A program made the position numbers and the translations under genes. Below, piece by piece: positions 40,517-63,011 of a DNA stretch of 64,000 bases. Within the stretch, counting starts at the first letter, position 1; each line of letters opens with the position of its first letter. This DNA comes from a virus: positions 1 to 64,000 of the IMG/VR virus record IMGVR_UViG_3300042562_001235. One strand, 5' to 3'. The notes beneath the pieces are model-generated. The model searched no databases and was not told where the DNA came from. It saw only the letters and a program-made list of their open reading frames with translations.

Positions 40517-41497
40517 TTATATTAAATCTTTCAATCTGTCACCATATAAATTTATAACTCTTTTTAAAAAAGCGTCAGGATTTTTTCTAATATACTCCAA
40601 AACATCATAACGAATATTTTTTGAATATTTTCCAAATAATTCAGCAATTTTATCAGCTTTTTGACCTCTTTCTTTGTTATACCTAAAGTTATTTATTTTA
40701 TTTACATCTATAATCGGAAAAGTAATAGTTTTTCTATTTCCTGATAGAGCATCATTATGAGATAATGATATCGAAGAACTAACTTTACCTGAATTTGCTT
40801 TTCTCAACAACATATCCATAACTTCTTCGTTATTTTTTACAGTGTATTCAATAACATTTCCCGTTTTAGGTAATACTCCAAATATCCAATTTACATTATT
40901 AAAAGAAACTTGCATCATTTGATTTTTATAAAAATCATATTCAGGTCCTTTTTTCATTAAATCATATGGTTTTTTAATACCTTCAACTGATAATGTATCA
41001 TCTTCTGAAATACCTTGTAACGCAACTTTTAAACCTTTATTTAATGACCCTAGTGAATATCTTTCCCCGGGAATTGTGAGTTTAACAGAATAAGGAACCC
41101 CTTCAATCATAATGTCAGCCATAGTACCTTCTCGATTACCTTCAGTTGTTGGTATTGCAACTCCACCGGTAAATAACCCAGCCATCAAACCTTCAAAGAA
41201 GAACCCACGACCATCAGTTTCCTCTTGTAAACTAATAAAATATTGATAAAATCGAATTCTATCAACCATTTTTTTAACATCTAAATTTAAATTAACGTCA
41301 GTCCCGTCAGTAGAAAAATCATAAGTACCAATACCCTCAGAATTTAATATTTTTGGTATAACCTTAGCCGCTTGTGTTTTACTTTTTGGAATTGGGGAAA
41401 TTGTCGGCATAACAACCTCTAAAGATTTTGCTACATCTACAATATTTTGTTCCTTCAAATATAATTTATATTGAGATTCGGTAATTTTAATTTTCAT
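40517..41497 (-). CDS. TES-leader family protein (N-terminus MKIKITESQYKLYLKEQ)
   Basis: Conserved N-terminal peptide shared with 7 other genes; TATTTATAAATATG motif at the start. Confidence 0.55.
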   Translation of the reverse strand: MKIKITESQYKLYLKEQNIVDVAKSLEVVMPTISPIPKSKTQAAKVIPKILNSEGIGTYDFSTDGTDVNLNLDVKKMVDRIRFYQYFISLQEETDGRGFFFEGLMAGLFTGGVAIPTTEGNREGTMADIMIEGVPYSVKLTIPGERYSLGSLNKGLKVALQGISEDDTLSVEGIKKPYDLMKKGPEYDFYKNQMMQVSFNNVNWIFGVLPKTGNVIEYTVKNNEEVMDMLLRKANSGKVSSSISLSHNDALSGNRKTITFPIIDVNKINNFRYNKERGQKADKIAELFGKYSKNIRYDVLEYIRKNPDAFLKRVINLYGDRLKDLI

Positions 41498-41519
41498 ATT
41501 TATAAATACCTCAATAAAT

Positions 41520-41548
41520 AAAAAACCCCTCGGTTAGGAGGGGTTAGT
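41520..41548 (-). terminator. rho-independent terminator (CCCCTCGGTTAGGAGGGG)
   Basis: Hairpin preceded by A6 on the + strand, which is a T-run on the minus strand. Confidence 0.6.
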
Positions 41549-41552
41549 TAAT

Positions 41553-41804
41553 TTACTCTTCAGTTTCTTCACCTTTGTTTTTGTTAATCCATTTGTCAAC
41601 CGAACCGATTCCAAATGAACCTAAAACTAACCACATAAAGGCGTTGAAGATAAACTCGTTTATTACTAGGTCTTGACCTAAATAACCTGTGACAATATCC
41701 GCAATTGCGAATATACTCATCATGATGAAGGCTAAAAAGCCAACAACACTTTTTTCATTAATTGAGTTCTCATCATTGAATAACTCGCTAAAAAATTTTT
41801 TCAT
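41553..41804 (-). CDS. small two-TM membrane protein
   Basis: 83 aa, hydrophobic. Confidence 0.45.
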   Translation of the reverse strand: MKKFFSELFNDENSINEKSVVGFLAFIMMSIFAIADIVTGYLGQDLVINEFIFNAFMWLVLGSFGIGSVDKWINKNKGEETEE

Positions 41805-41869
41805 AGTATTTGGTAATTTACTTAATAATAAATATCAAAAAAAGACTATTTATCTAAAAAACTTATAAC

Positions 41870-42017
41870 ATGGCAAAAGTTAATACAGGTTCAAATTCAT
41901 CAGTTAAATTAGAGACTTCAAAAGTTAGTCGTCCGGGGGTTCATTCAAAAACTAAGACATCTAAGTTAAAACAATCTAAAAACTACAAGAAATCATATAA
42001 AGGGCAAGGAAAATAAC
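41870..42017 (+). CDS. small basic Lys/Ser-rich protein (48 aa; not in ORF track)
   Basis: ATG at 41870 through TAA at 42015: MAKVNTGSNSSVKLETSKVSRPGVHSKTKTSKLKQSKNYKKSYKGQGK. Confidence 0.3.
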
Positions 42018-42053
42018 CTATCTTAATTATAAAATTTTGTTATATTTCTTATT

Positions 42054-42341
42054 ATGCTAGATAAGAAACGAAGGTTCTTTCGCCTAATAGAAAGTTATAT
42101 TAATGATTTCCGTGGAGACGCAGTTAGGGAATTCTATGGGGATAAGGCACGAATAAAAATTCATACAATGACTCATAGTTTTTCAACAAATGTTTTATTA
42201 TTTGAAATTGTGGTTGTTTTAGGGGAGACAATTAACGAATCTGTTATGGATGACACACTTGCAAGTGTTTTAATTCAAGATTCTATGGTATATTTTTACC
42301 CTGAATCTAAAATACAAACTTATGTAAGGTTTGATTCTTAA
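42054..42341 (+). CDS. hypothetical protein
   Basis: 95-aa ORF. Confidence 0.4.
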   Translation: MLDKKRRFFRLIESYINDFRGDAVREFYGDKARIKIHTMTHSFSTNVLLFEIVVVLGETINESVMDDTLASVLIQDSMVYFYPESKIQTYVRFDS

Positions 42342-42649
42342 ATATTTTTACTACTTTTCAATGTTGCGTGAAGTTCGTTGTTTTCTTTTTGTAAGAATTC
42401 AACTTTAATTGCTAATTGAGCAACTGATTCTGTTAGTTTTAAGATAGTTTCTCTCATAATATCCTTCTCTTTACTACTTTCTTGTAATAATACTTCTAAT
42501 TTACCAATTCTATCTCTACAATCGTGTCTGACAAAATCTTCATCTTTTTCTTTTCTTAACGCTCTTTTTTCGTAAAATCTCCAAGCACTTGCAGAACCTA
42601 ATACGGTCAACGCTGTAATTAAGACGGTCCAAACTGATTCATTTTGCAT
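42338..42649 (-). CDS. hypothetical membrane-anchored coiled-coil protein
   Basis: N-terminal TM followed by a coiled-coil. Confidence 0.4.
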   Translation of the reverse strand: MQNESVWTVLITALTVLGSASAWRFYEKRALRKEKDEDFVRHDCRDRIGKLEVLLQESSKEKDIMRETILKLTESVAQLAIKVEFLQKENNELHATLKSSKNI

Positions 42650-42805
42650 ATTTTAAACTATTTCTAAATAAATATACGATTGTTGATAAAAACATGAAAC
42701 TTTGGTCGGGAAGGGAATAATTATTATTCTTAAAAGAATAATAATATAATAATAAAATATAATAAAAAAGTAAAAAAGAAAAATAAGCACTAGTACTAGA
42801 ACTAG

Positions 42806-43105
42806 TTAGGCGAAATCTACACAACATTCAAAACCTAACACACCCTCCAAAGTTTCTTGGACATTTGTTGGTCTATAAGATTCTCTCGGTAATGGTGATT
42901 TAATTTGGACAAACAATGCAAATGAATCCGGAACCCATTTACTTAAATTTTTATCATACTTAAACGTGGGTGTCATATCAAAATCACATATTGTAACCCC
43001 GCTATATGAAATCCCTAAAACCGTTTCACATAATCGTTTTACTCTATCTTTGTCCATGTCATATCTGAATTTAGAATGACAGAATAAACGTGTTTCTGTC
43101 TCCAC
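42806..43105 (-). CDS. hypothetical protein (overlaps 43039..43422 in the -1 frame)
   Basis: 99 aa; 67-nt overlap with the upstream gene. Confidence 0.35.
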   Translation of the reverse strand: METETRLFCHSKFRYDMDKDRVKRLCETVLGISYSGVTICDFDMTPTFKYDKNLSKWVPDSFALFVQIKSPLPRESYRPTNVQETLEGVLGFECCVDFA

Positions 43106-43422
43106 GTATTGGGTTCGATTAGAGATAAGAACTTATTACCTTTAACATCTTCATAGAGGTGGTAAATTTGACCAATAATGGGTTCAAAACGATAAGATGA
43201 CTCATAGACCTCTTGGTTAAGAATAAATGAATTATAAAGGTTCTCTGCGTCTCGCATGAGTTCTTTATATTTTGTGTCATAAATTTTGTTCACCCGGTCG
43301 GTCCCGTTTTTCTTAAATGATGTTAAGTCGGGTACATCTATCTTTGGGGCACCAACATGGGATGGGTACGAAAGTAAATTCGCCTTTAACTCTACCTTGT
43401 CGATGTGTGATTGTGTTGACAT
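43039..43422 (-). CDS. hypothetical protein
   Basis: 127-aa ORF. Confidence 0.45.
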   Translation of the reverse strand: MSTQSHIDKVELKANLLSYPSHVGAPKIDVPDLTSFKKNGTDRVNKIYDTKYKELMRDAENLYNSFILNQEVYESSYRFEPIIGQIYHLYEDVKGNKFLSLIEPNTWRQKHVYSVILNSDMTWTKIE

Positions 43423-43482
43423 AAAAAAAAAGTGTCCCTAATAGGAACACTAATTATAAATTATATTTTTTGAAAGTTCAAC

Positions 43483-43983
43483 TTATTGACCTTTAATCAT
43501 TGAGATACCGTGTTTCAGGAATTCTTTAGCTCTTGCAGATACATGATTCATCATATAAACCTTTTCGATGTCTTTGACTAACTCTTCACCATGTTCATTC
43601 TCCTTATAAAGTTCAATGATTTTATCCATAGCTTTATTACACTCTTTCTTTGTTTCATCAAAATAGTTGTAAGGTTTGAATCCCTTTAAATGATTCATAA
43701 TTTCAGACGCTAAATGTTCTCCACCATCCGAAACTTTTGGGTGTAATCTAAGAGTTTTCAATAATTCAAGTTTATCAACTAATCCGTTAACACCATTTCT
43801 TCTAATTGTAACACCATCAATATAATCTTCTGATTCATCGTCACCCATTATATCATCCAATGTTTTAACATTTCCACCGTGGCAGAATTTTCTATCTTCT
43901 TTTTCTTCAGATTGTTCAATCATATAAAGTTTCTTGATTGAATCAATTTCTGATTCCGTAATTGTAAATCTTTTAGTTCCCAT
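43483..43983 (-). CDS. TES-leader family protein (MGTKRFTITESEIDSIKKLYMIEQ)
   Basis: N-terminal peptide related to the RLTESDL group; TATTTATAGACATG at the start. Confidence 0.5.
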   Translation of the reverse strand: MGTKRFTITESEIDSIKKLYMIEQSEEKEDRKFCHGGNVKTLDDIMGDDESEDYIDGVTIRRNGVNGLVDKLELLKTLRLHPKVSDGGEHLASEIMNHLKGFKPYNYFDETKKECNKAMDKIIELYKENEHGEELVKDIEKVYMMNHVSARAKEFLKHGISMIKGQ

Positions 43984-44003
43984 GTCTATAAATATATCAA
44001 TAA

Positions 44004-44723: not shown

Positions 44724-44740
44724 ATTAGGTATTTATTTGT

Positions 44741-45382: not shown

Positions 45383-45412
45383 AATAACCCCTCTTCGGAG
45401 GGGTTATTTATT
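45383..45412. terminator. bidirectional terminator (AACCCCTCTTCGGAGGGGTT)
   Basis: GC stem with a TTCG loop between convergent genes. Confidence 0.65.
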
Positions 45413-45857: not shown

Positions 45858-46179
45858 TAGTTTTAATCATATCCATATTTGTATTGAACACACTAAACCT
45901 TATTAATGTCTTATCGTTATCGATACCAAGATAAGGTAATAATCTTCTTACATGGTGGTCAACCATCCAATGTTCATCAAATTGGGGAATGTTCCCAAAA
46001 ACATCACCATATTCTATAGGTTGATTCAAATAAATGTTTAGATGTAAAGTATCCTCAAGGACATCTAAAGGTTTATTACTATTGTGAACTTCGATTTTAT
46101 CGACAATAGGATAAATGTTTTTGATAACATCACTATTAAGTAATTTTTCAAGTCCTTTTATTTGTGTGTTCTCTATCAT
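45847..46179 (-). CDS. hypothetical protein
   Basis: 110-aa ORF. Confidence 0.45.
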   Translation of the reverse strand: MIENTQIKGLEKLLNSDVIKNIYPIVDKIEVHNSNKPLDVLEDTLHLNIYLNQPIEYGDVFGNIPQFDEHWMVDHHVRRLLPYLGIDNDKTLIRFSVFNTNMDMIKTNDF

Positions 46180-46538
46180 AAGTAATAATCTATTGTGTTA
46201 ACGGGAATTTTAAACGTTTCGACAAACCACTCTTTAAACCCTTCTTTCCAATTATCATTAAAATAACCTTCTAATGAGTTAAGAAGTCCTTGGTCTTCAA
46301 TATACAACATTGGACTTAGTGGTTTTCGGTAATCTGAAGCTCCGGTCCAATAGTCTTCACCATATAACCTGAACAATGTTTCATCATCCATATAATCACC
46401 AAGATAAAATTCAATAGCGTCTTGTTCGTCTCCATCCTCAGTTAAATGAGTCCAATTAATATTCTCAACATCAAGAGTACTATTTAAATAGTTTTTTACC
46501 GTTTGATTTAATTTACTTTCCGTTATTATGTATTTCAT
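46176..46538 (-). CDS. TES-leader family protein (MKYIITESKLNQTVKNYLNS)
   Basis: Conserved N-terminal peptide. Confidence 0.55.
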   Translation of the reverse strand: MKYIITESKLNQTVKNYLNSTLDVENINWTHLTEDGDEQDAIEFYLGDYMDDETLFRLYGEDYWTGASDYRKPLSPMLYIEDQGLLNSLEGYFNDNWKEGFKEWFVETFKIPVNTIDYYL

Positions 46539-46810: not shown

Positions 46811-47419
46811 TTATGCGATATATGGTGGTTTTGGACTACTTCCTTTTAAATAACCATCTGCAACTTTGGCCAATAAATCACCTGTACCCCAAGTTTTAAG
46901 TCCTTTCATTCTAGATAACTCAAATAGACCTACATCATTTTTAAGACCATCAATAATATCATTATATCTTCCATTTTTTAATGTCTTACAAGTAGATTGA
47001 ATACCATCTCCCTGTGTTTGGTAATTTTTTACACCAACACTATTATAATTTGTTGCCCCAGCCATTTTTTGTGTAGTGTTAAATGGATTATTAGTAGCCT
47101 TACCACCTTCCGCTTGTCTCCAAGCATACATAAATGACATATTATCTTTAGTAGGTTTTGCACCAACACATGATAAAACTTCTTTATAGAAATCATCATC
47201 TGTTGTTGTTATTGATTTTATATCACTTTCTTTATCACCTAACATTGACGGATTGTCCTTAATTTTATCAGTTGAATCTGTAGAAGTGGATGATTTAGGA
47301 TTCAATATTTTACCTACATAATCTTTAATGATGTCAGCAGCATTTTTACCTGTTACTTGTTTTGAAATCATATCAATTAAATCTTGTTCAGTTAACCTAA
47401 CTTTATATTTTTTTCCCAT
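46811..47419 (-). CDS. TES-leader family protein (MGKKYKVRLTEQDLIDMISKQV)
   Basis: N-terminus related to MKKIIRLTESDL; CTATTTATAGATATG at the start. Confidence 0.5.
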   Translation of the reverse strand: MGKKYKVRLTEQDLIDMISKQVTGKNAADIIKDYVGKILNPKSSTSTDSTDKIKDNPSMLGDKESDIKSITTTDDDFYKEVLSCVGAKPTKDNMSFMYAWRQAEGGKATNNPFNTTQKMAGATNYNSVGVKNYQTQGDGIQSTCKTLKNGRYNDIIDGLKNDVGLFELSRMKGLKTWGTGDLLAKVADGYLKGSSPKPPYIA

Positions 47420-47449: not shown

Positions 47450-47476
47450 ACAAAACCCCCATACGGGGGTTTTTTT
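47450..47476. terminator. bidirectional terminator (CCCCCATACGGGGG plus T7)
   Basis: Hairpin flanked by an A-run and a T-run. Confidence 0.65.
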
Positions 47477-47909
47477 AATTTAATATGGTAATTGAGTTGA
47501 TTTTATCACCTTGTTGAATTGAATCGACAATTTCTAACCCTTCAGTTACTCGTCCAAAACAAGTATGGTTACCATCTAAATGTTGAGTACCTTGTCTACT
47601 ATGACAAATGAAGAATTGTGAACCACCTGTATTTCTTCCGGCATGTGCCATAGATAATACTCCTCTATCGTGGAATTGGTTTGATGAAGTAACCTCACAA
47701 GGGATGTTATATCCCGGACCACCACTACCGGTTCCGTTTGGGCATCCTCCTTGGATTACAAAATTAGGGATAACTCTATGGAAATTTAATCCATCATAGA
47801 ATTTTTTTTCAATAAGGTCTTTAAAGTTTTTTACGGTAATTGGAGTCTCATTATCGTATAGTTCGGCAATCATGTCGCCTTTGTCTGTAGAAAATTTTAC
47901 TTTAGTCAT
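47475..47909 (-). CDS. cyclophilin-type peptidyl-prolyl cis-trans isomerase
   Basis: FHRVIPNFVIQGGCPNGTGSGGPGY ... GVLSMAHAG ... GSQFFICH matches PpiA/PpiB signatures. Confidence 0.85.
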   Translation of the reverse strand: MTKVKFSTDKGDMIAELYDNETPITVKNFKDLIEKKFYDGLNFHRVIPNFVIQGGCPNGTGSGGPGYNIPCEVTSSNQFHDRGVLSMAHAGRNTGGSQFFICHSRQGTQHLDGNHTCFGRVTEGLEIVDSIQQGDKINSITILN

Positions 47910-47955: not shown

Positions 47956-48222
47956 TTAATAATCAATGTCCGTGTTCTCCATCATTATAACTTCAACATC
48001 TAATCCAATATAATTTTTTATTTTATCACGAATCAATAATTGATATTTTGTTTTTGATTTACTCATTAGATAATTTTTTAATGGAATTAAAACATATATG
48101 GAACCAGTCGATGAAAATATAACTTCAACTTTTATCGCCAATGGGACTTTAATATCTTCAACTATTTCTTTAATTGTGGATATTATTCTTTCTTTTTGTT
48201 TTTCACTGATAATGACATCCAT
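47956..48222 (-). CDS. hypothetical protein
   Basis: 88-aa ORF. Confidence 0.4.
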   Translation of the reverse strand: MDVIISEKQKERIISTIKEIVEDIKVPLAIKVEVIFSSTGSIYVLIPLKNYLMSKSKTKYQLLIRDKIKNYIGLDVEVIMMENTDIDY

Positions 48223-48223: not shown

Positions 48224-49255
48224 CTATTCAGGATTTAACGAATATAATCTAATGAAATTTCTTCTTAATTTTTCACCCATCTTATTTATTGTTGGTTGGA
48301 AATATTTCATTAAATCCAAGATATTTTTGGTGTTCATTATTTTTTTATTCAAGGGATTGTTGTAACCCGTCTTTTTACTAAATTCATAGTAAGCAATAAA
48401 ATACGTGTGAAGAGTTTCTAAAAGGGTGTTTTGTTCTTCTTGAGGTAAATCCTCAATAAGTTCTAAGATGTATTCATAATAATCGTTAGCATCAAAGTTA
48501 ATCATCCCTTGGCAATATTGCCAATATTTTGTAGTTTTGAATTGTTCAAACGGCATTCTTAATCTTTTACTATAAGCTTCTTGAGACATCGCTCTTACTT
48601 CGTAAGGTTCAGACATATATAATAAAGATAAAAATTGTTTCCACACAGAAAGAACTTCTTTATTTATTCCAGTATCAATCATCTCAAAAGGTTTTTTCAT
48701 AAATGATAATGTAGTATCTAACCCTTTTTCACCTTTTAAAGCTCTGTTGTAATACTCATACATATGATTAAATTCATGTAATACCGCATCCCTAAAATCA
48801 TACAACATCTCGTCAATATCTTCAAAATCTTTATTGATTATAAATTGAAACTCAAAACCTGCAACCAATGACATATGAATCTCATCCGAAAAACTTTTTG
48901 GTAAATATTTGCTAGGTTCTTTTATATAAGAACCATTATCAATCATATCAGCATAAGCTAAAACTTGGAATCCTTCAGGTATTGGATTCTCATCCAATCT
49001 TTCAAAAGAAAATTTAATTATAATCTCTTCAATGGGTAGTTCAATAAAATCTTCCAAATTAGATTTATAAATTGGGAAAATGTCTTTTAGAGATATTTTA
49101 AGTGTTTCCTCTATTTTTTTATCTGAATTAAATAAACTTTTAACTTTTCCACTAACAAAGTCGTAAATTAGATTTGTAAATGGGATAGACGCACGGGAAA
49201 CCCCTAAGTCTTCGTTTAGTAATTTGTATTGTGATTCTGTAATGATATATTTCAT
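48224..49255 (-). CDS. TES-leader family protein (MKYIITESQYKLLNEDLGVS); body contains HEFNH
   Basis: Conserved N-terminal peptide; TATTTATAAAATATG at the start. Confidence 0.55.
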   Translation of the reverse strand: MKYIITESQYKLLNEDLGVSRASIPFTNLIYDFVSGKVKSLFNSDKKIEETLKISLKDIFPIYKSNLEDFIELPIEEIIIKFSFERLDENPIPEGFQVLAYADMIDNGSYIKEPSKYLPKSFSDEIHMSLVAGFEFQFIINKDFEDIDEMLYDFRDAVLHEFNHMYEYYNRALKGEKGLDTTLSFMKKPFEMIDTGINKEVLSVWKQFLSLLYMSEPYEVRAMSQEAYSKRLRMPFEQFKTTKYWQYCQGMINFDANDYYEYILELIEDLPQEEQNTLLETLHTYFIAYYEFSKKTGYNNPLNKKIMNTKNILDLMKYFQPTINKMGEKLRRNFIRLYSLNPE

Positions 49256-51141: not shown

Positions 51142-51999
51142 TTAATTACCTACTCTTAATATGTCCGTATTATAACCTAAACCACTCATTAATTCATTAA
51201 CATCTTTAGTAAAATCACTTGAGTTTCTCCATGCATTACTTTTATAAGTTAATGTGATATACCCCCCAACACTATTATGAGATGGTCCAAATTTCACTGA
51301 ATGTAATATATGAGAATTAGGTAGGGCTCTAATTTTCTTTTTTATTTCTTTATTTAATGTTTTTGTAATCCACTCATCAATACCTTCATATACAAATGAA
51401 CCACTTATATTTAAATCTAATTTTCCATGTGTGGGACTACCAAGTTCAACTCCAATAAAATTAGTTAAGGTTTCGGCAAATTCTGCAGATAAAGCGGTTG
51501 CATTATATTTTTCATCTGACTTATCATGAATTGCTTTATCCCAATCGACAATAAAACGACCATACACTGAATAAGGAGATTTTTCGGTTAACTCTAAAGT
51601 TATCCATTCAGGTAAGTTTAACCTATCGGTAAAAAAGGTAATTGCCTTTTTAAACTTATCAGTAAAAAGACCTTCTTTTTTAAGGTTCGGCATTTTGTGA
51701 ACACCTTTTATTGCCAACTCTTTTCCAACATTAGCCATGTTACGATAAGAGCCATAATAACGGGAATTATTTTCAATACCATAATCTTCAATAAATTCAT
51801 TAATATGATTTTTAATCAATAATGAAAGAGGGTATTGTCCTACTTCATCACCGTGTGTTTTCTTAACCCATGGTCTAAAGTAATTAAGGAAAACCTCAAT
51901 AAAGTCTTCATCCTCATATTCACTTGGATTAAAATTTTCCAAAACTGTTTTCACAATTCTCTCAAGGTCAGATTCGGTAAGTGTGTGTATTCTTTTCAT
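51142..51999 (-). CDS. TES-leader family protein (MKRIHTLTESDLERIVKTVLENF)
   Basis: Conserved N-terminal peptide. Confidence 0.55.
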   Translation of the reverse strand: MKRIHTLTESDLERIVKTVLENFNPSEYEDEDFIEVFLNYFRPWVKKTHGDEVGQYPLSLLIKNHINEFIEDYGIENNSRYYGSYRNMANVGKELAIKGVHKMPNLKKEGLFTDKFKKAITFFTDRLNLPEWITLELTEKSPYSVYGRFIVDWDKAIHDKSDEKYNATALSAEFAETLTNFIGVELGSPTHGKLDLNISGSFVYEGIDEWITKTLNKEIKKKIRALPNSHILHSVKFGPSHNSVGGYITLTYKSNAWRNSSDFTKDVNELMSGLGYNTDILRVGN

Positions 52000-54762: not shown

Positions 54763-55065
54763 TTAAGATTGGGTAAATTTTACATCAACACCATATTTCC
54801 ATTCAAACCATTCAGATATAAATTTATATGCCTCTTCATCGTTAGGGAAAAATAAATCCGAGAATCCACGACCGAATGAACTATTAACATATAGTCTTCC
54901 ATCGGTATGGTCGTACTCCATCATAACCTCATCTTCAATATCATCTACTTCACCAGGATGATAGATAATAATAAACTCTTCGAAGTCAGATTCGGACCCA
55001 ACTCTATTTTCAATATATTCTTTTCTTAGGTCGTTTAACTTACTTTCTTTTATTATGTATTTCAT
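54763..55065 (-). CDS. TES-leader family protein (MKYIIKESKLNDLRKEYIEN)
   Basis: Conserved N-terminal peptide; GTATTTATTAAATATG at the start. Confidence 0.5.
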   Translation of the reverse strand: MKYIIKESKLNDLRKEYIENRVGSESDFEEFIIIYHPGEVDDIEDEVMMEYDHTDGRLYVNSSFGRGFSDLFFPNDEEAYKFISEWFEWKYGVDVKFTQS

Positions 55066-56004: not shown

Positions 56005-56027
56005 CGATTAGGGTGGGTTTGTTTTTA
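55990..56027. terminator. bidirectional terminator (CCCACCGATTAGGGTGGG)
   Basis: Hairpin flanked by an A-run and a T-run. Confidence 0.65.
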
Positions 56028-56834
56028 TTTTAACATTTCGTAAGCTCTAGATAATCGTGTTAATCCAATTCCCGCACCAAATCTTGGGAAGAAATCATGA
56101 GATAAAAACTCTTCAAGTTCTTTTTCAACCCTTTCTTTACCAAATAGTTCAAACAACTTGGATGAATAACCTCCACCTTCAATGGTATAAAACATTTCTC
56201 TCATCTTTTCAACATCACAACTTCTCTCAGCAGAACCAATTGTTTCTTGCCCAAACATAATAACATCAACTTTATTAAAAATGTTATCTTCCCCGTGTTT
56301 CATATTCCAAAAGGGGTTAGTTCTTATTGGAAAATTTTGAAGTGATACAATAGGTCCTTTTTCTTTCCACATTCTTGATTCGTGTTCATCTTCCAATATT
56401 CTAACACCACCATATTCCTCACACACATCTTCATAATTAACCTCAATCGGTGTTTCAAATCCAAGATGTTCAAGTAAGTCTTGTTCTAATTTCAACATTG
56501 TGTTCATGTCTCCTTTAGATTCAAATTCAAACATTGGAAAAATCAATTCATGACGACCGGGAATAGGATTTTTCTCTTCTCTATATGAAGTTGAGATACA
56601 AAATACTCCGTCCCATTCAGGATTTTTTAATAATTCATACTCCAACCACATCTGTCCGGTTTGTGGTAATGGCCATATTTCACCACTATATTCGAATGTT
56701 TTTACCGAATGTGGATTTTCACATGCTGCCAAGATTGATAATCTACTTTGTGTAGGGACTTCCTTAAAGTTTCTCTCAAGGAAAAAACTTCTCATTTTTT
56801 GTACCAGTTCGTGGTAAGTTTCTGTGTTTCTCAT
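56025..56834 (-). CDS. class II aminoacyl-tRNA-synthetase-like catalytic core (AsnA/EpmA-like), no anticodon-binding domain
   Basis: Motif 2-like SYREEKNPIPGRHELIFPMFEFE (compare EpmA [20 protein letters not shown]). Motif 3-like GAGIGLTRLSRA (G.G.G..RL). Confidence 0.5.
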   Translation of the reverse strand: MRNTETYHELVQKMRSFFLERNFKEVPTQSRLSILAACENPHSVKTFEYSGEIWPLPQTGQMWLEYELLKNPEWDGVFCISTSYREEKNPIPGRHELIFPMFEFESKGDMNTMLKLEQDLLEHLGFETPIEVNYEDVCEEYGGVRILEDEHESRMWKEKGPIVSLQNFPIRTNPFWNMKHGEDNIFNKVDVIMFGQETIGSAERSCDVEKMREMFYTIEGGGYSSKLFELFGKERVEKELEEFLSHDFFPRFGAGIGLTRLSRAYEMLK

Positions 56835-56906: not shown

Positions 56907-57283
56907 AAAGACAACCAATATCGGTTGTAATATTATTTGTATTTCTATTTTTTTTCTTTTTATACATTGATAATAAGTATATATGAATTGTCTAAAAATA
57001 CAATACTTTTTTTTATTTTTTATTTTCTTCTTTTACTAATGGTTTTGAGTCACCAAGTTTAGAATTAATTAATTTTGAGAAATTCTCAGTCATAACTTTC
57101 ATTCCTCCTGTGTGTTGTTCACGGATGGCATTTTTTTCTTCTTCAGATAAATTATTCAATATGTGTTTCATATGTTCGTTTTATTATAAATAGTTTGTTA
57201 TGATGGAAAATAATTGTCAAACACCCTATTATAGTGGAAAATAAAGGACAATTAACCTTATTTTTTACTTTTTAATGGAAAAT

Positions 57284-57592
57284 TTAGTAAATTTTGTGAA
57301 CTTTAATCCCATAATTCTCCAAAAACCACTCCTCCATTGTTGTTTTGGTTCTAACCCAACCTAAATCAAAAACATTTTCAAGGTGATTTACAATATGTTT
57401 TTTAAGTCCCGGTATTTCAATATACAAATTACCTGAATCCGTGGAATAATAAAAAATCACTTTATTATTTTCATTAACAAAATGCTTCACATTAATTCTT
57501 GGAGAGTCTATTTCTTTTAATCCACCAAAAAAACCTCCAATGTATTTGGAAATAAACTTATCTAATTGGTTTTCTGTTATAACGTATTTCAT
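57284..57592 (-). CDS. TES-leader family protein (MKYVITENQLDKFISKYIGG)
   Basis: ORF trimmed to Met16. Its start is 1 nt after the stop of the upstream paralogue, so the two are tandem. Confidence 0.5.
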   Translation of the reverse strand: MKYVITENQLDKFISKYIGGFFGGLKEIDSPRINVKHFVNENNKVIFYYSTDSGNLYIEIPGLKKHIVNHLENVFDLGWVRTKTTMEEWFLENYGIKVHKIY

Positions 57593-57593
57593 C

Positions 57594-57917
57594 TTAAGCA
57601 CACATTTTCTTATGATACTTAACCAAGTAATCACCAAACTTGTCTACAAAATAATAGTAGAGAGAATCATTTTCTTCAGGTTTTAAAACGTAATCAAAGT
57701 CATTAACAAAGTAATCGTGATACATTTCAACCAAAGAATCACAGGCATTACTAACAAATTCACCAATATCATCATACTCACATAGGTCGGTCATCTCATC
57801 AAGAATTCCCCACTCCAAATCATTCATCATGTTTTTAAATGGTAATCTTCTTCGTACTTCCGGTGATAACGATTCTGTTAATAAAACGTATTGAGATTCA
57901 GTTATAACATATTTCAT
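57594..57917 (-). CDS. TES-leader family protein (MKYVITESQYVLLTESLSPE)
   Basis: Conserved N-terminal peptide; GTATTTATCATTATG at the start. Confidence 0.55.
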   Translation of the reverse strand: MKYVITESQYVLLTESLSPEVRRRLPFKNMMNDLEWGILDEMTDLCEYDDIGEFVSNACDSLVEMYHDYFVNDFDYVLKPEENDSLYYYFVDKFGDYLVKYHKKMCA

Positions 57918-57935: not shown

Positions 57936-57968
57936 ATAAAAAAACCCACCTCAATGGGTGGGATAATT
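57936..57968 (-). terminator. rho-independent terminator (CCCACCTCAATGGGTGGG)
   Basis: Hairpin plus A7. Confidence 0.6.
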
Positions 57969-57970
57969 TA

Positions 57971-58489
57971 TTAACCTCGTCTTCCTGATGATGTTCCTCG
58001 TCCACCACTTTGTGGTCTAACTGACGGAATTTCAGTTCTTGTTGATTGTGGTCTAACCGATGGTGTTTCAGTTCTTGTTGATGGTTGTCTAACTGATTCC
58101 GTTCTCACCTGAGGACTTCCTCGATACCCATTATTTCTCGCAACCCTAAATCCTTGATTATAATATACCGGATGTGAATAATAATAGTTATGAATTCTTG
58201 GTCTCCAATAAGGGTCATCAAAATAGAACCACCAATTATTACCAAAATACCAATTATTCCCCCAATAAAATCTCCAATTATTATAATAATATGGGTCTAA
58301 TTGGTTTGAAAAAGAAGATAATGGGACTTGAACTTGTTCTCCTAACTCATTAACCGCCAAGATATGTGTTATTCTTGGTTGATATGACACGTTTTGATAA
58401 TTACCACAAGATGATAATGTTAAAATCAAAAACAATAATGATATAATTTTTTTCATAATATATTTTTTATTATAAATATCAATAATCAT
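57971..58489 (-). CDS. lipoprotein, Tyr/Asn/Trp-rich with Arg/Ser/Thr-rich C-terminal repeats
   Basis: Lipobox LTLSSCGN. Repeats VRQPSTRTETPSVRPQSTRTEIPSVRPQS. Confidence 0.5.
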   Translation of the reverse strand: MIIDIYNKKYIMKKIISLLFLILTLSSCGNYQNVSYQPRITHILAVNELGEQVQVPLSSFSNQLDPYYYNNWRFYWGNNWYFGNNWWFYFDDPYWRPRIHNYYYSHPVYYNQGFRVARNNGYRGSPQVRTESVRQPSTRTETPSVRPQSTRTEIPSVRPQSGGRGTSSGRRG

Positions 58490-58504
58490 TCCAAATAAAA
58501 AAGG

Positions 58505-59560
58505 TTAAGTTTCCTTAACCCCAAATTTAATTGTATCCTCAAGATAATTATAAAACGATTTTGTTCTATCTTCTTTATCGTGATAATAATTACCATAACC
58601 TATTAGTTCTCCACTTTGGTCAGGTAGTGGTTGGGTTTCTTTAATACCGGTTTCAATAATAGTCTCAACATTACCATCAGTAATGTTTTGTCTCAAAATA
58701 GTTTTCTTAATGCCATTTTGTATAGTGTCTTCAACCATTACCTGTGGCATATACTCGGTGTTGAGAGTTTCCTTAACACCATTATCAATAACATCATCAA
58801 TCATTTTTGTGTAACTACTTGAGTTATTTTCATCCATCCATTCAATTGTTGACATAATGTCACCATCTTTACCAAGTGTTTTTGTTTCTTTCACACCATT
58901 TTTAATAACACCCTCAACCCAACTTTTATTTTCGTTATCATTAAATTGTGTCAACTTCACCCCATTTTGAATGGTGTCTTCAATAACTAAAGAACCATCT
59001 ATTCGTAATGATTTATTAGTTTCTTTCACCCCATTTTCAATTATATTTTTAACTGTGAGTTGTTTATGTCCTTGATTAAACATAGTTTCCTTCACCCCAT
59101 CTTGAATAACATCTTCAACAAGGTTTTTAACCCCTTGTTCATAACTGAGGGGGTGTTTTTCATCAAAGTTGAGGGTCTCTTTCACGCCATTTTCAATGGT
59201 GTCTTCAACGCGTTCAATGATTAGGTTATTGGCCAAATTGGTCTGTTTAACCCCCATTTCAATGATTCCTTCAACTTCACCTTCTGTAATATTTTTTTCC
59301 AAAATGGTGTCTTTAACCACATTTATTATATTATCTTCCACCCATTGGGTGATGTAATGTTGATTTTCAACCACATCCATTGAGGCATAATTAAATATAT
59401 TGTTAAAAAAGTTATAGTTATACCACAGAGTTTTGCTCTCGGTTAATTCAATCACCCATTGTTTGGACTCCGTGAATATTAACCAAGTGGAACCATTATG
59501 GGTATAGGTGTCCACACCTTTAACAGATTCATTAATTAACGTATCAACTATTTTTTTCAT
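58505..59560 (-). CDS. repeat protein with at least 9 copies of a roughly 22-aa unit centred on (I/V)xNG(V/I)KET
   Basis: IENGVKETL, IQDGVKETM, IENGVKETN, IQNGVKLTQ, IKNGVKETK, IDNGVKETL, IQNGIKKTI, IETGIKETQ, IKFGVKET. Start trimmed to MKKIVDTL. Confidence 0.55.
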   Translation of the reverse strand: MKKIVDTLINESVKGVDTYTHNGSTWLIFTESKQWVIELTESKTLWYNYNFFNNIFNYASMDVVENQHYITQWVEDNIINVVKDTILEKNITEGEVEGIIEMGVKQTNLANNLIIERVEDTIENGVKETLNFDEKHPLSYEQGVKNLVEDVIQDGVKETMFNQGHKQLTVKNIIENGVKETNKSLRIDGSLVIEDTIQNGVKLTQFNDNENKSWVEGVIKNGVKETKTLGKDGDIMSTIEWMDENNSSSYTKMIDDVIDNGVKETLNTEYMPQVMVEDTIQNGIKKTILRQNITDGNVETIIETGIKETQPLPDQSGELIGYGNYYHDKEDRTKSFYNYLEDTIKFGVKET

Positions 59561-60008
59561 CAACTTTCTTTTTAAATAATTCGAAAAACTTATCTTGGTT
59601 TGTTTTCTCAGGTGGAACAATTAACGATTCAACTTTAAATGAAATAAAATCCATTTCACTACCATAGGTCATTTTGAAATAATCATTAAACAATCCTTCA
59701 TAATGGTCTTTACCACCTTTTGGTACATCGTTCTCATTAAAAAATAAATTAATTGCAACCAAAAAATTAAAAGACGGTTCAAAAGTCATTGGGTCATAAA
59801 CACTTCTACTTTTATAACCAATGGTGACAACCTCCCTAATCTCGGGACACAATTTTAAAACAACCGTATTGAATCTTTCAGGTATATCAATATCGCGTAC
59901 ATACTCATATGTTGTTTCGTGTTCATTCTCTTCTCCCATAATATCTAATTTTTCACAAAGATAAGAAATTATTTTATTAGAAAATAGTAGGCATAAAAAA
60001 ACCCTCAC
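59544..60008 (-). CDS. hypothetical protein
   Basis: 154-aa ORF. Confidence 0.45.
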   Translation of the reverse strand: MRVFLCLLFSNKIISYLCEKLDIMGEENEHETTYEYVRDIDIPERFNTVVLKLCPEIREVVTIGYKSRSVYDPMTFEPSFNFLVAINLFFNENDVPKGGKDHYEGLFNDYFKMTYGSEMDFISFKVESLIVPPEKTNQDKFFELFKKKVDEKNS

Positions 60009-60024
60009 TATGGAGGGGTTAATT
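59994..60024 (-). terminator. rho-independent terminator (CCCTCACTATGGAGGG)
   Basis: Hairpin plus A7. Confidence 0.6.
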
Positions 60025-60033
60025 TATTTAATT

Positions 60034-60399
60034 TCAGTTATCATCATCATCAAAATCTTCATCATCATCAAAATCTTCTTCAACATATTGTGAAAGTATG
60101 TATTCACCAAAATTATCTTTTATTAAGTCAACAAGTTCGTCATAATCGTAAGTATCATAGTCATAATTTGTTAACTCATCAACAACCCAACGAATGATAT
60201 TAGACGCAAACTCAAATTCATCACTAAACCCATATCCTCCTTCATCATTAACCTTTTCAATATTCTTATCAATAAGTTCTTCAATGGTGGATAATCTTCG
60301 TTTCAAAAACATATTATCATTGTCTTCATTTAATAGTCGATTTTCCAATTTTATATTGGATTCTTGTATGTGTCTAATTTTACTATAACTTCTATTCAT
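60034..60399 (-). CDS. NRSYSK-leader protein (MNRSYSKIRHIQESNIKLENRLLNE), acidic repeat C-terminus
   Basis: Trimmed to Met5 to match the paralogue 62220..62597. C-terminus EDFDDDEDFDDDDN is encoded by a 20-bp tandem repeat. Confidence 0.5.
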   Translation of the reverse strand: MNRSYSKIRHIQESNIKLENRLLNEDNDNMFLKRRLSTIEELIDKNIEKVNDEGGYGFSDEFEFASNIIRWVVDELTNYDYDTYDYDELVDLIKDNFGEYILSQYVEEDFDDDEDFDDDDN

Positions 60400-60419
60400 A
60401 TTGATAAACATTATATTTG

Positions 60420-60758
60420 TTATTCAATTTCGGACAAATAATCCATAATATCCGATGTGATATCCAATTGTCGATAATCAGATTGACTACTCGTATCATC
60501 ATTATTAGCATAATTAATCATTTCGGCAACAGATGAAAGTAATTCAGCGGTCTTTTCTCTCCCAATAATTGAAACTGATGTCATAACAAATTTTCCTAAT
60601 TGTGAGGACATTTTATCAAAATACCCAAAATTTTTTCCCCTATTATCCTCATAATTGAAGAATTCTTTTAATTTTTTAGGATTTGATTTTTCTTCTATTA
60701 TCACTTTTTTAACCAAACGACTTAAATCATCTTCGGTTAGTCTTACTATTTTTTTCAT
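60420..60758 (-). CDS. TES-leader family protein (MKKIVRLTEDDLSRLVKKVIIEE)
   Basis: Conserved N-terminal peptide; TGATATATTTATAATAAAAA promoter motif. Confidence 0.55.
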   Translation of the reverse strand: MKKIVRLTEDDLSRLVKKVIIEEKSNPKKLKEFFNYEDNRGKNFGYFDKMSSQLGKFVMTSVSIIGREKTAELLSSVAEMINYANNDDTSSQSDYRQLDITSDIMDYLSEIE

Positions 60759-60791
60759 AAATTATTTGTTTTTATTATAAATATATCACAA

Positions 60792-61220
60792 TTAACCAAT
60801 TTGAGTTGCGTTCGTTCCATATTTTTGATTAAACATATTCAAAAATGATTTACCCCAAACATCAACACCACCAAACATATCGATAAGTCGGTCAATAAGT
60901 TCTTCTTCCAACCATAGGGTATCAAATCGGGATTCGGTGATATCCGGAACATCATGACAAGGTTCAGGTAATTCTCCCATAAGTTCCTCAGGGTAATCCC
61001 CACCATCATCATAGTTCTCACCATCAACCAACTTAAATAAATAATCATCGTGTTCTCTACCGGGAAGAACAAAACCAATTGCATAGATATCACAACATAC
61101 ACCCCACCCACAATCAAAGTCGGCCCAAGTATAATCCATATCCTCAAACCCATCAAAAGATAGATTTAGAAATTTCGAAATAACATTTGTTAATTTAGAT
61201 TCGTCAATAATATATTCCAT
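60792..61220 (-). CDS. TES-leader family protein (MEYIIDESKLTNVISKFLN), acidic
   Basis: Trimmed to Met8; compare MKYIITESKLNQTVKNYLN (46176..46538). Confidence 0.5.
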   Translation of the reverse strand: MEYIIDESKLTNVISKFLNLSFDGFEDMDYTWADFDCGWGVCCDIYAIGFVLPGREHDDYLFKLVDGENYDDGGDYPEELMGELPEPCHDVPDITESRFDTLWLEEELIDRLIDMFGGVDVWGKSFLNMFNQKYGTNATQIG

Positions 61221-61242
61221 AATGATAAATAGTTGTACCAAT

Positions 61243-61275
61243 AAAAAACCCCACTACAATGAGCGGGGTTATTTA
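61243..61275 (-). terminator. rho-independent terminator (CCCCACTACAATGAGCGGGG)
   Basis: Imperfect GC hairpin plus A6, followed by an (ATT)7 microsatellite. Confidence 0.5.
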
Positions 61276-61295
61276 TTATTATTATTATTATTATT
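61272..61295. repeat. (ATT)7 microsatellite
   Basis: attattattattattattatt immediately 3' of the stop of gene 61295..61672. Confidence 0.8.
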
Positions 61296-61672
61296 TATGC
61301 TCTTACATTTCTTGAATTTTCATAAGTGTAATATAGTCCTTCACCCATTTGTTCAACACATTCATACCCTTGTTCTTCAAAATTATTATCGGTTCCGATT
61401 AGATTAACAAACGCTAAAGTTTCAATCCCACAAATGTCAATACCCGAAAAATCGGCATACTCACAATCAAGAATTGCAACAAATCTAATGTCATCTGATA
61501 AATTATTTAGATGTTTACTAACCACATCAGCACTTTTATTACGTAACATAAGTTGACGACGAGTAGTATCTTTTTCTTCATAACCCATAGTCATTTCATC
61601 TTCTTGTTCTTTAATCACTCTTCTAACTAATCTAGTTAAATCTGATTCAGTTAGTCTTATTATTTTTTTCAT
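61295..61672 (-). CDS. TES-leader family protein (MKKIIRLTESDLTRLVRRVIKEQE)
   Basis: Conserved N-terminal peptide; GAAATATTTATAATAAAAATG promoter motif. Confidence 0.55.
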   Translation of the reverse strand: MKKIIRLTESDLTRLVRRVIKEQEDEMTMGYEEKDTTRRQLMLRNKSADVVSKHLNNLSDDIRFVAILDCEYADFSGIDICGIETLAFVNLIGTDNNFEEQGYECVEQMGEGLYYTYENSRNVRA

Positions 61673-61733
61673 ACTAATATCATTTTTATTATAAATATTT
61701 CAATACCCAAAAAAGGGGATGGGATTTAAATCA

Positions 61734-62096
61734 TTATTTAATTTCAATATTCACTAATTCAATTTTACCGGAGCTTGGGTTATTAAAAATAAATTCACAC
61801 TTTCGAGATTGATTATCAATCTTACCCACAGTTCCTTTTGTCCCTGGTTTGATTCTGGAATCATTAGAGTTTGATTGAGTTATAACACTATTCTCATAAT
61901 TACCATATCTCATATTTTCACCAACTTTAATTATGACAAAATCATTAGTTGGTTTTCCTCGTTCACCTGTTTTTGTTGATTTTAGAAAACCCTTAATTGT
62001 TTTAGGTGAACTCTGTTCGGTAAGATTGGATTCATTAACTATCCTTTTAACAATTCTCATTAAATCAGATTCAGTTAATCTTATTACTTTGTTCAT
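61734..62096 (-). CDS. TES-leader family protein (MNKVIRLTESDLMRIVKRIVNES)
   Basis: First 40 nt nearly identical to 62622..63011; TGATATATTTATAATAAAATG promoter motif. Confidence 0.55.
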   Translation of the reverse strand: MNKVIRLTESDLMRIVKRIVNESNLTEQSSPKTIKGFLKSTKTGERGKPTNDFVIIKVGENMRYGNYENSVITQSNSNDSRIKPGTKGTVGKIDNQSRKCEFIFNNPSSGKIELVNIEIK

Positions 62097-62128
62097 TTTG
62101 ATATCATTTTATTATAAATATATCAATT

Positions 62129-62176
62129 ACCAAAAAAAGGGCTGGGATTACACCGAACGAAGTGAGTCCGGTTCGG
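62129..62176. repeat. intergenic repeat element, copy A (CCAAAAAAAGGGCTGGGATTACACCGAACGAAGTGAGTCCGGTTCGG)
   Basis: Shares a GGGCTGGGATT box and a CGAACGAAGTGAG(T/A)CCGG box with the copies at 63048 and 63319. Contains a CCGAAC...GTTCGG hairpin. Confidence 0.6.
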
Positions 62177-62185
62177 AAGAGATAT

Positions 62186-62216
62186 AAAAAAACCCACCTT
62201 TATGGGGTGGGGTTAT
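62186..62216 (-). terminator. rho-independent terminator (CCCACCTTTATGGGGTGGG)
   Basis: Hairpin plus A7 on the + strand. Confidence 0.6.
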
Positions 62217-62219
62217 ATC

Positions 62220-62597
62220 TTACATACCTACTTGTTGTTTGTATCTTTTAAGTAATTGGAAAATATCACTTCTTGTTTTTCCATTATAATATCTACAATA
62301 AGTTTGCACATATTCAGGGGTTTTATTATAATCCTCAAAACCTCCACCAACATTATCACAATTAATATCCATAAAGTTATTAACGATTTCTTCCAACATA
62401 GGAATAACATTGTTTATAAGATTACTTTTTTGTGCATCTTCCTCAGATGGTCTATTCATAGTTTGAGGTTCATCTGATGATGTATCCATAGAAGATGTAC
62501 CCATGTCATCCATATTAAATTGTTCAAATAACATTCTTCTCTCCAATCTACTATTGGATTCTTGTATGTGTCTAATTTTACTATAACTTCTATTCAT
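62220..62597 (-). CDS. NRSYSK-leader protein (MNRSYSKIRHIQESNSRLERRMLFEQ)
   Basis: N-terminal 25 aa conserved with 60034..60399. Confidence 0.5.
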   Translation of the reverse strand: MNRSYSKIRHIQESNSRLERRMLFEQFNMDDMGTSSMDTSSDEPQTMNRPSEEDAQKSNLINNVIPMLEEIVNNFMDINCDNVGGGFEDYNKTPEYVQTYCRYYNGKTRSDIFQLLKRYKQQVGM

Positions 62598-62634
62598 AAT
62601 TTTATTATCTCTTTAATTTTATTATCTCTTTAAT
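62598..62634. repeat. tandem direct repeat TTT(T)ATTATCTCTTTAAT x2
   Basis: 18/17-bp unit duplicated head-to-tail between genes 62622..63011 and 62220..62597. Confidence 0.75.
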
Positions 62635-63011
62635 GATAAGGCATATTGAACAACTTTATTTGCAACAACTTTAGGGTCGTTTGGACCAAGTAGGAATTCT
62701 TTCATACCTTTATTATTTCCAACCCACACATAATAAATTCCTTTCATTTTATCTAATAGGACATTAACACCGTTACTGTGTCCACCATAACTTAAAGAAT
62801 TTTCTGTGCCAATTTGTTTTAACTTTTTATCGTATTCGTCTTTAAAACCCGATTTCAATAATTTTGGTTTAACAATTTTATTATAGTGTTCAAGTTCGTC
62901 AGTTTGTGGGTCACCAGGTCCTTCTTTAAACCCACCTACCTCTTGTTCATTAATAACTCGTCTAACGATACGAATTAAATCAGATTCAGTTAATCTTATT
63001 ACTTTTTTCAT
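62622..63011 (-). CDS. TES-leader family protein (MKKVIRLTESDLIRIVRRVINEQE)
   Basis: Conserved N-terminal peptide; TGATATATTTATTAATAAAGG promoter motif. Confidence 0.55.
   Translation of the reverse strand: MKKVIRLTESDLIRIVRRVINEQEVGGFKEGPGDPQTDELEHYNKIVKPKLLKSGFKDEYDKKLKQIGTENSLSYGGHSNGVNVLLDKMKGIYYVWVGNNKGMKEFLLGPNDPKVVANKVVQYALSLKR

Follow-up and report, generated by a model that had tools for sequence, protein, structure and literature searches.

The prohead protease gp21 of phage T4 cuts its substrates at L/I-X-E, with propeptides as short as 7 residues in Alt and as long as 65 residues in gp23 (PMC9026906); the T4 capsid-targeting sequence (CTS) is MKTYQEFIAE (PMC8442874). In phiKZ, 201phi2-1 and SPN3US, the propeptides of ejection or inner-body proteins are cut after the Glu of S/A-X-E or A-X-E by diverged, gp21-like proteases (PMC9026906, PMC7411985). 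Here we describe a family of N-terminal peptides of 10-25 residues, which we call tags and which fall into four interchangeable classes (R, I, N and F). They recur in the first 64,000 nucleotides of the IMG/VR virus record IMGVR_UViG_3300042562_001235; this whole stretch, positions 1 to 64,000, is referred to below as the window. At least 17 genes of the window are tagged (eight I, six R, two N and one F). We suggest, with a probability of roughly 0.7, that the tags are a greatly expanded variant of the T4 capsid-targeting system, as predicted from the genes of an uncultured phage clade.

Results

The sequence logos draw on 296 unique tagged proteins, taken from 85 sequences that total 1.42 Mb. 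The R tag has the consensus M-K-K-[IV]-[IV]-R-L-T-E-S-D-L-x-R-[IL]-V-[KR]-R-V-I-x-E, with Leu at residue 7 in 176 of 188 cases. Its information content drops from ~3-4 to ~0.3 bits directly past Glu22, which is 96% conserved, and its helix has a basic face (R14, K/R17, R18, K21) opposite L12, I15, V16, V19 and I20. The I tag reads M-K-[YIF]-[ILV]-I-T-E-[SN]-[QK]-[LY] (Ile at residue 5 in 78 of 81), the N tag MNRSYSKIRHIQESNxxLExRLLxE (logo n=12) and the F tag MKKF[IL]ITEEEKxxIL.[LM][YH] (27 unique examples). All four classes follow a common plan, in which a hydrophobic stub is followed by [IL]-[TQ]-E-(S/E) and then by a class-specific amphipathic helix. The initial annotation of this DNA had described three separate leader families; their recurrence is real, but their independence is not, given the common core and the fourth class, F. 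When the six-frame translation of the window was searched for the core [ILV]TE[SDNQ][QKED][LYI], 13 matches were found, compared with a mean of 0.3-0.4 and a maximum of 3 in mononucleotide and codon-block shuffles. Twelve of these matches fall at residues 4-10 of minus-strand open reading frames (ORFs) between 40.5 and 63 kb, and the neighbours of tagged genes are mostly further tagged genes.

Synonymous codon variation within the tag, remarked on in the initial annotation, is borne out by 174 unique R-tag DNAs. Codon positions 1, 2 and 3 carry 1.38, 1.57 and 0.92 bits, and the codons come from disjoint boxes (Leu7 from TTA, CTT, CTA and TTG; Ser10 from TCN and AGT; Arg from AGA, CGT and CGA). 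The disjoint boxes and the low third-position information therefore indicate that the constraint acts on the peptide, and the codon-position analysis rules out a nucleotide-level element, be it an RNA or a recombination signal, as the cause of the conservation. The description of the tag as a strictly N-terminal leader has to be qualified owing to rare internal copies: in the loci, one or two of 395 copies are internal, and proteins with two or three copies, including internal ones that lack the Met, are enriched at the top of the R-tag profile search, where copy scores add.

Tags and bodies are modular units. The 293 unique bodies fall into 212 clusters, of which 172 are singletons, and six clusters mix tag classes. 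In all-versus-all BLAST, run both on complete proteins and after removal of the first 30 residues, the similarity among R and among N members extends to about residue 24 and no further. The same comparison identifies four I-class genes as weak whole-length paralogues: 46176..46538 (-), starting MKYIITESKL; 54763..55065 (-), starting MKYIIKESKL; 57284..57592 (-), starting MKYVITENQL; and 60792..61220 (-), starting MEYIIDESKL. The claim that the bodies are unrelated is thus mostly true but does not hold for these four. Tags are also seen to be exchanged between related bodies. The N-class protein of 62220..62597 (-), which starts MNRSYSKIRHIQESNSRLERRMLFE, and an R-tagged protein of locus L008 have the same body, EQFNMDDMGTSS; a body related to that of the R-class gene 61295..61672 (-) has an N tag in L008, and a body related to that of the N-class gene 60034..60399 (-; ATG at 60399) has an R tag in L038.

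Two window proteins illustrate the architecture. The R-class gene 46811..47419 (-) encodes a tag, a disordered linker and a lysozyme-like (GH73-type) peptidoglycan hydrolase domain. Its body family has more than 813 matches and a conserved C-terminal domain of ~135 aa, which a linker rich in Ser, Thr, Asn and Asp joins to an R, I or F tag or to a different N-terminus; some members have an internal R tag behind an extra domain. The I-class gene 48224..49255 (-) encodes a 343-aa protein whose body contains HExxH and has a novel fold. Its homologues retain the I tag down to 35% identity, and 25%-identical homologues in two megaphages of 630-640 kb have other N-termini and no tag. AlphaFold models of these two proteins, a check proposed at the outset, give confident bodies (predicted local distance difference test, pLDDT, ~90) and a detached, low-confidence tag helix (pLDDT 51-65), which in the hydrolase is followed by the disordered linker (pLDDT 31-41). 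The alternative raised in the initial annotation, that the N-terminal similarity belongs to a single family conserved over its whole length, fails, since the same body occurs with different tags and the tag is detached; BLAST, body clustering, tag swaps and AlphaFold all rule it out. RiPP-like (ribosomally synthesized and post-translationally modified peptide) precursors are ruled out as well, because the bodies reach 630 aa and include enzymes. At strain level, comparison of L006 (5960-7813) with L003 (10157-11037) reveals a tandem duplication of a pair consisting of an R-tagged 125-aa gene (corresponding to 61295) and an I-tagged 142-aa gene (corresponding to 60792), and L005 has a deletion in the tag locus, with a 104-aa gene call at the place of the 125-aa N-class gene.

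The tags are real and widespread, and as a sequence family they had not been described. When the R tag was used for an exhaustive profile search (E<=0.001), 6,778 clusters at 50% identity were returned, nearly all with the match at residue 1; almost all are viral, and almost all have no known function. IMG/VR holds at least 437 R-tag matches, on contigs of up to 322 kb. Among 185,579 species-representative genomes, an R-tag match was seen on only seven contigs of metagenome-assembled genomes, several of which are labelled Bacteroidetes or Prevotella and which carry a sister variant, MKKVIRLTESDLHRIVKESVK.VL.E. These seven contigs (L085-L091) are probably phage DNA. The gut and rumen bins in which this variant occurs are assigned to Prevotella, Bacteroidales, Alphaproteobacteria and Bacilli, with GC contents of 22-48%. 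The profile hidden Markov model (HMM) search of phage and metagenome data that had been proposed thus showed the tag to be widespread and virus-restricted. Scans of 16 tagged proteins against Pfam-A, PHROGs and NCBIfam gave no match covering the tag, and megablast and tblastn searches with the tag, the full proteins, the hydrolase domain and the gut variant found no tagged relative among deposited phages; the sole marginal deposited match, LR756508, proved to be a false lead. In the library of papers that could be searched, none was found to describe the tag. The suspicion that the leader had not been described before is therefore upheld for curated families, papers and deposited phages alike. 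R, I and N tags occur together in independent genomes, all three within ~9 kb in L007, and more than half of the loci that had been selected for the R tag only also contain I tags.

To compare the tags with T4, we read the T4 N-termini from the T4 record and placed the cuts from the L/I-X-E motif and the propeptide lengths: MELITE↓L for Alt, ...STITE↓A for IPI, MKTYQEFIAE↓A for IPII and IPIII, MLKEQLIAE↓A for gp22, ...LLRE↓S for gp24 and ...SFLTE↓AEIGG for gp23. In the tags, the invariant core reads ITE-S, LTE-S or IQE-S, with VI[NK]E-Q at the end of the R tag; the I/L-T-E tripeptide of the tags is that found at the Alt, IPI and gp23 sites. In the clade's own capsid protein, ENQAS[FHY]LINE-A is present in 29 of 29 unique homologues, at the site of gp23 SFLTE↓A, in an N-terminal alignment with gp23 that is anchored by NKW, LEG.GL, ENQ, SFL and VRR...DI..VQ.MN.P.G..F. 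Because LINE-A is conserved in the capsid homologues, the predicted specificity of the clade protease fits both candidate tag sites. When IPI, IPII, IPIII and Alt are set against the tags, only Met-Lys and I/L-x-E are common, and the tags would therefore be a functional analogue or a variant of the CTS and not a member of its sequence family.

The phages that carry the tags have T4-type heads, to judge by their genes. T4 head proteins were searched with tblastn against all fetched sequence (2.85 Mb), and tag-bearing contigs were found to encode the gp20 portal (E ~1e-24), the gp23 capsid protein (E 2e-22), sheath, tube and the gp21 prohead protease (E 4e-21; 32-37% identity; invariant H85 and S140, T4 numbering). 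No head genes were found within the 64-kb window. With many of the tag-bearing contigs, among them some that encode ClpC, gp20 and gp21, the window shares orthologues of 49-96% identity (the first 25 residues were left out of the calculation), and we infer that its own genome has the head cluster. As T4-type head genes lie on tag-bearing contigs, the clade groups as a distant T4-type lineage; we take it to be an uncultured, low-GC freshwater clade of T4-like giant phages.

The order of the head cluster is portal, 239-aa protein, 156-aa protein, protease, 69-aa protein, scaffold and capsid protein, and the 239-aa post-portal protein has the N-terminus MK.FGILKSKIE.VLLES. Tagged genes are found within this cluster. 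In L082, two R-tagged genes stand between portal and protease, the T4 position of gp67 and gp68; in L084 and L220, the interval between protease and scaffold contains a 329-aa gene whose tag is I-like. Just 3' of the capsid gene, in some cases beyond a gene of ~227 aa, comes a gene of ~400 aa whose F tag is either canonical or degenerate.

A promoter-like element, [GA]TATTTAT, is situated 4-25 nt 5' of tagged genes and precedes 13 of the 17 tagged genes of the window, for example at 41502..41508 (-), with further sites at 43988, 47424, 49261, 52005, 55071, 57922, 60777, 61225, 61691, 62114 and 63031. TATTTAT also occurs within 45 nt upstream of the scaffold gene (23 of 23), the post-portal gene (39 of 39), the protease gene (51 of 52) and the portal gene (27 of 40). 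Since it is common to head genes and tagged genes, the element assigns the tagged genes to the head-gene expression class, and they are presumably expressed with the head genes, late. A tag-specific promoter is ruled out, as the element is also found at untagged genes, among them endolysins and nucleases; the genes that lack TATTTAT have mainly DNA replication and nucleotide-metabolism functions. The form (G/A)ATATTTAT(A) precedes 34% of untagged ORFs of at least 150 aa. The T4 late promoter is TATAAATA, and (G/A)ATATTTAT(A) differs from it at two central positions (TATTTATA). Most tagged genes have a terminator-like hairpin together with [GA]TATTTAT on their 5' side. Such hairpins are four-fold enriched between 44 and 64 kb of the window, with 33 seen and 8 expected.

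Few of 121 long tagged proteins match known families. The cell-wall families among the cargo are PG_binding_1, LysM, phage lysozyme, glucosaminidase, transglycosylase and YkuD/Tlde1; the others comprise sigma-70/ECF (extracytoplasmic function) sigma factors, a transcriptional regulator and a metalloprotease. One protein combines an R tag with PG_binding_1 and a Tlde1-like domain (L052), another an I tag with lysozyme and LysM (L077). The tagged peptidoglycan hydrolases have no signal peptides, and the window encodes a separate, canonical endolysin (36362-37183), preceded by TATTTAT. Signal-less cell-wall enzymes beside a normal endolysin would fit proteins that are ejected at entry. In charge and in Cys content, the cargo does not differ from untagged ORFs.

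The genes that the initial annotation listed, with the N-termini it gave, are all present on the minus strand. It counted eight genes with the ITES leader and gave coordinates for seven, so that the tally was imprecise; the set of tagged genes is nevertheless real and larger than it stated. The upstream TTG starts assigned to genes 57284 and 60792 are incorrect, and the true starts are ATG 57592 and ATG 61220; the start of gene 60034 also had to be corrected, to 60399. Gene 43483..43983 (-), MGTKRFTITESEIDSIKKLYMIEQ, is tagged, but it had been filed under R and belongs to class F. The remaining R-class genes are 62622..63011 (-), which consists of MKKVIRLTESDLIRIVRRVINEQ and a 106-aa body and occurs, as the exact protein, in 50 indexed blocks of the assembly collection, 61734..62096 (-), 60420..60758 (-) and 51142..51999 (-; 285 aa, starting MKRIHTLTESDLERIVKTVLEN). 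The remaining I-class genes are 57594..57917 (-), starting MKYVITESQY, and 40517..41497 (-; 326 aa, starting MKIKITESQYKLYLKEQ). A candidate extra I-class gene, 25932..26552 (+), starts MEFLITETQLKTIL and lies outside the range first flagged; it was detected by a weak N-terminal HMM match (10 bits) and has TATTTAT immediately upstream. Two weak tag candidates were picked out by eye, MDVIISEKQKERIIS at 47956-48222 and MKHILNNLSEEEKNAIREQH at 57013-57171.

The initial annotation had also pointed to the ClpP-family gene of the window, 7787-8533 (+), as a possible processing protease. This part has to be given up. Against cellular ClpP (NF011091) the protein scores 227 bits over its full length, against Clp_rel_HeadMat only 61 bits; these profile scores mark it as a genuine ClpP and rule it out as the prohead protease. 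Its gene lies outside any head module, and the gp21 homologue, encoded outside the window, fits the role. The wider analogy to capsid targeting that the same annotation had drawn gains strong independent support from the gp21-family protease, the I/L-T-E motif, the head-cluster position and the promoter element. The best deposited relatives of the window ClpP are those of Lak-type megaphages. The clade also encodes a ClpC-type double-AAA+ unfoldase without the adaptor-binding N-domain (667 bits to ClpC residues 150-805). It is a highly conserved core gene of the clade, with 424 IMG/VR matches (for example L047:5388-7421 (-), and in L043, L065 and L009); 6-8 kb separate it from the portal gene, and its orientation is divergent to that of the R-tag arrays.

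Besides the tagged genes, the window encodes a gp63-type RNA ligase and nucleases. Eight tRNA genes (Ile, Asn, Phe, Tyr, Val, Cys, Gln, Ser) occupy 23-946 (-). Two tandem Nol-like carbamoyltransferase paralogues (3881-5545 and 5549-7138, +) precede a heptosyltransferase-like gene (7113-7751). An unusually long thymidylate synthase of 393 aa is encoded at 24117-25298 (+). A cohesin-domain protein (30435-32318, +) has a Por/T9SS (type IX secretion system) C-terminal sorting domain, and a C-type-lectin-domain protein is encoded nearby (35350-36324, +). The T9SS sorting domain points to the Bacteroidota, to which the host probably belongs. Within the tagged region, we noted a cyclophilin-type peptidyl-prolyl isomerase, recognised by eye from the sequence (47475-47909, -), and a class-II aminoacyl-tRNA-synthetase-like (AsnA-like) protein (56025-56834, -). 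The same region encodes a lipoprotein-like protein (57971-58489, -) that has a signal peptide with Cys, a middle part rich in Tyr, Asn and Trp and C-terminal SVRPQSTRTE repeats, and a protein of 351-371 aa (58505-59620, -) with about ten repeats ending in D/E-T-I-x-N-G-V-K-E-T.

In the megaphages LR745206 and LR756502 (630-640 kb), other N-termini recur, namely MKNFKDFMNEE, MRFLKKFEKFNEE, MRKFTKILEEIEN and MKKFTKLLEEIDN, in genes at 18136-21475 of L001 and 19971-21508 of L002. Their pattern resembles both MK.FG.LK..IE.VLLES, of the post-portal protein, and the T4 CTS MKTYQEFIAE, and it may be another tag system.

Discussion

We suggest the following course of events for the tagged proteins. 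The head would be built on a scaffolding core and matured by a gp21-family prohead protease, and the tagged genes would be transcribed late, from the head-gene type of promoter. A hydrophobic stub and a Thr-capped amphipathic helix, carried on a flexible linker, would dock the cargo to the prohead core, and the docked cargo would be enclosed while the shell forms. The protease would then cut past the invariant Glu of all classes (I/L-T/Q-E↓S) and free the cargo inside the head; in the R tag, a second cut at V-I-x-E↓Q is probable. At the next infection the cargo would exit with the DNA. Hydrolases of the cell wall, an L,D-transpeptidase-like enzyme and a sigma factor would be among the ejected proteins, together with a metalloprotease-like protein and small proteins of unknown function in their hundreds, and free recombination between tags and bodies would lead to a hypervariable, strain-specific effector repertoire.

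Several observations weigh against this proposal. Docking to the core, cleavage, packaging and ejection are steps that we infer from sequence, for a lineage that is uncultured and has no deposited phage with the tag. The head genes and the gp21 homologue reside in related contigs, and their link to the window runs through orthologues of 49-96% identity. Among loci selected on the protease, a tag is found in the flanks of only 14 of 80, and the core head genes are untagged in most. Beyond the cleavage motif, the tags bear no likeness to the T4 CTS MKTYQEFIAE, and [IL]-x-E is short and common in proteomes rich in Glu, Ile and Leu. The Thr and Ser of the core show more conservation than cleavage by itself would demand, and rare proteins carry internal, Met-less tag copies. 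Finally, ClpP and the N-domain-less ClpC are present in the same phages, and R-tag arrays adjoin ClpC, which leaves room for a different reader of the tag.

The tag could accordingly be a recognition signal or degron for the phage ClpC-ClpP, serving the scheduled unfolding, degradation or remodelling of the proteins that bear it; the ClpC without N-domain would engage the tag as an accessible N-terminus on a flexible linker. The window has a genuine ClpP, ClpC is a core gene of the clade, 45 of 80 ClpC loci hold tags, and R-tag arrays begin 86-2,700 bp from ClpC; moreover, the tag sits at a fixed N-terminal offset, is poorly ordered and has a disordered linker next to it. Yet the tagged genes have the head-gene (late) element and not the upstream context of replication genes, and for peptidoglycan hydrolases, which have no cytoplasmic substrate, there is no obvious reason for degradation. 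To our knowledge, degrons are far less conserved than a near-invariant 22-mer. ClpP-like genes are also found in Lak and other megaphages, and the regions fetched from these are without tags. ClpC adjoins the head cluster too, so its adjacency to the arrays may reflect a variable island near core genes, and the I/L-T-E core is common to all tag classes. We consider a ClpC-ClpP signal quite unlikely.

Weaker still is the possibility that the tag is a docking helix for some other partner, such as a hub protein, a chaperone, a membrane or a host complex, and that the tagged proteins are never packaged. An amphipathic helix with a basic face would suit such a role, the detached tag in the AlphaFold models is what a fold-on-binding motif would look like, and the rare internal copies suggest that a free N-terminus is not always needed. 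Near the arrays, however, there is no conserved untagged partner (the best family is present in 14 of 83 loci), and a docking helix leaves unexplained both the invariant I/L-T-E of four differing classes and the head-cluster position with its shared promoter element; it seems improbable to us. The very improbable remaining view is that the N-terminus is a recombination joint of terminator, promoter and first codons that shuffles accessory genes and encodes a functionless peptide: homology does break exactly at the tag end, even for internal tags (P0122, P0123, P0124), the upstream terminator-plus-promoter cassette is conserved, and strains gain, lose and tandemly duplicate the genes, but copies of the tag have only 72% identity in their DNA and vary freely at synonymous sites across codon boxes, which argues for peptide-level constraint, the promoter element also precedes untagged genes, and such a joint would be compatible with capsid targeting and no replacement for it.

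If the tags do target proteins to the capsid, as we think likely, the four classes might, instead of being redundant variants, constitute an address code with class-specific cut sites, although we regard this extension as doubtful. The cut would fall after residue 7-13 or after residue 22, and the class would set what stays on the cargo. The basic helix of the R tag could persist after the LTE↓S cut and bind DNA or the core, and could thereby determine where in the head the cargo lies and when it is ejected relative to other cargo; ClpC without its N-domain, encoded beside the R-tag arrays and the head cluster, could act as an unfoldase that helps to load or prepare tagged proteins. Were this true, uncultured T4-like phages would possess a programmable arsenal for injecting proteins of thousands of effector families.

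Should the tags be capsid addresses, with or without such a code, a simple sequence rule would tell which proteins are packaged and injected by the giant phages of a widespread freshwater clade that is uncultured, a task that otherwise takes purified virions and mass spectrometry. It would also open a very large pool of candidate first-strike effectors for anti-defence, cell-wall breaching and transcription hijack, would make the T4 capsid-targeting principle ancient and expanded well past three internal proteins and Alt, and would supply new portable tags with which foreign proteins could be loaded into phage heads. A tag profile would be useful for annotation at once, because no Pfam or PHROG model exists.

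Among systems outside tailed-phage heads, encapsulins and bacterial microcompartments use short terminal peptides or amphipathic helices on flexible linkers to bring diverse cargo into a shell, and encapsulins have the HK97 capsid fold. These peptides are uncleaved, usually C-terminal in encapsulins, cellular, and not meant for delivery to another cell, so that the likeness is one of analogy only. Polymorphic toxins (CdiA VENN, Rhs, and the MIX and FIX effectors of the type VI secretion system, T6SS) combine a conserved trafficking or marker segment with hypervariable cargo and have recombination breakpoints at the junction, as do the tagged proteins, and the cargo described here includes a Tlde1-like protein, whose family is known among T6SS effectors. 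Unlike in polymorphic toxins, the conserved part here is a tag of 10-25 aa at the extreme N-terminus, the cargo is a whole protein, and the proposed carrier is the virion.

The giant phages of the phiKZ type resemble the clade in being large and in loading many proteins into the head. Their cleavage site has Ser, Ala or Gly at P3, whereas ours would have Ile or Leu, and the SPN3US propeptides, at ~110-130 residues, are far longer than the tags. We know of no conserved portable tag among the propeptides of phiKZ, 201phi2-1 or SPN3US.

The closest parallel is the T4 CTS. In T4, as here, a short N-terminal propeptide precedes unrelated, hypervariable small proteins (IPI, IPII, IPIII and Alt); the I/L-x-E site, gp20, gp21, the scaffold and gp23 are common to both, and here too tagged genes stand among head-core genes, behind a head-gene promoter element. 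The CTS is 10 aa long, the length of the I tag MKYIITESQ[LY]. The system described here is predicted from genes, and its host, unlike that of T4, is probably a member of the Bacteroidota. Where T4 has one class of CTS, there are four interchangeable classes in this clade, and the R tag is unlike the CTS in its 22 aa, its basic amphipathic helix and its two candidate sites. The two systems differ most visibly in scale: three internal proteins and Alt in T4, against at least 17 tagged genes in 64 kb and 6,778 clusters of R-tagged proteins.

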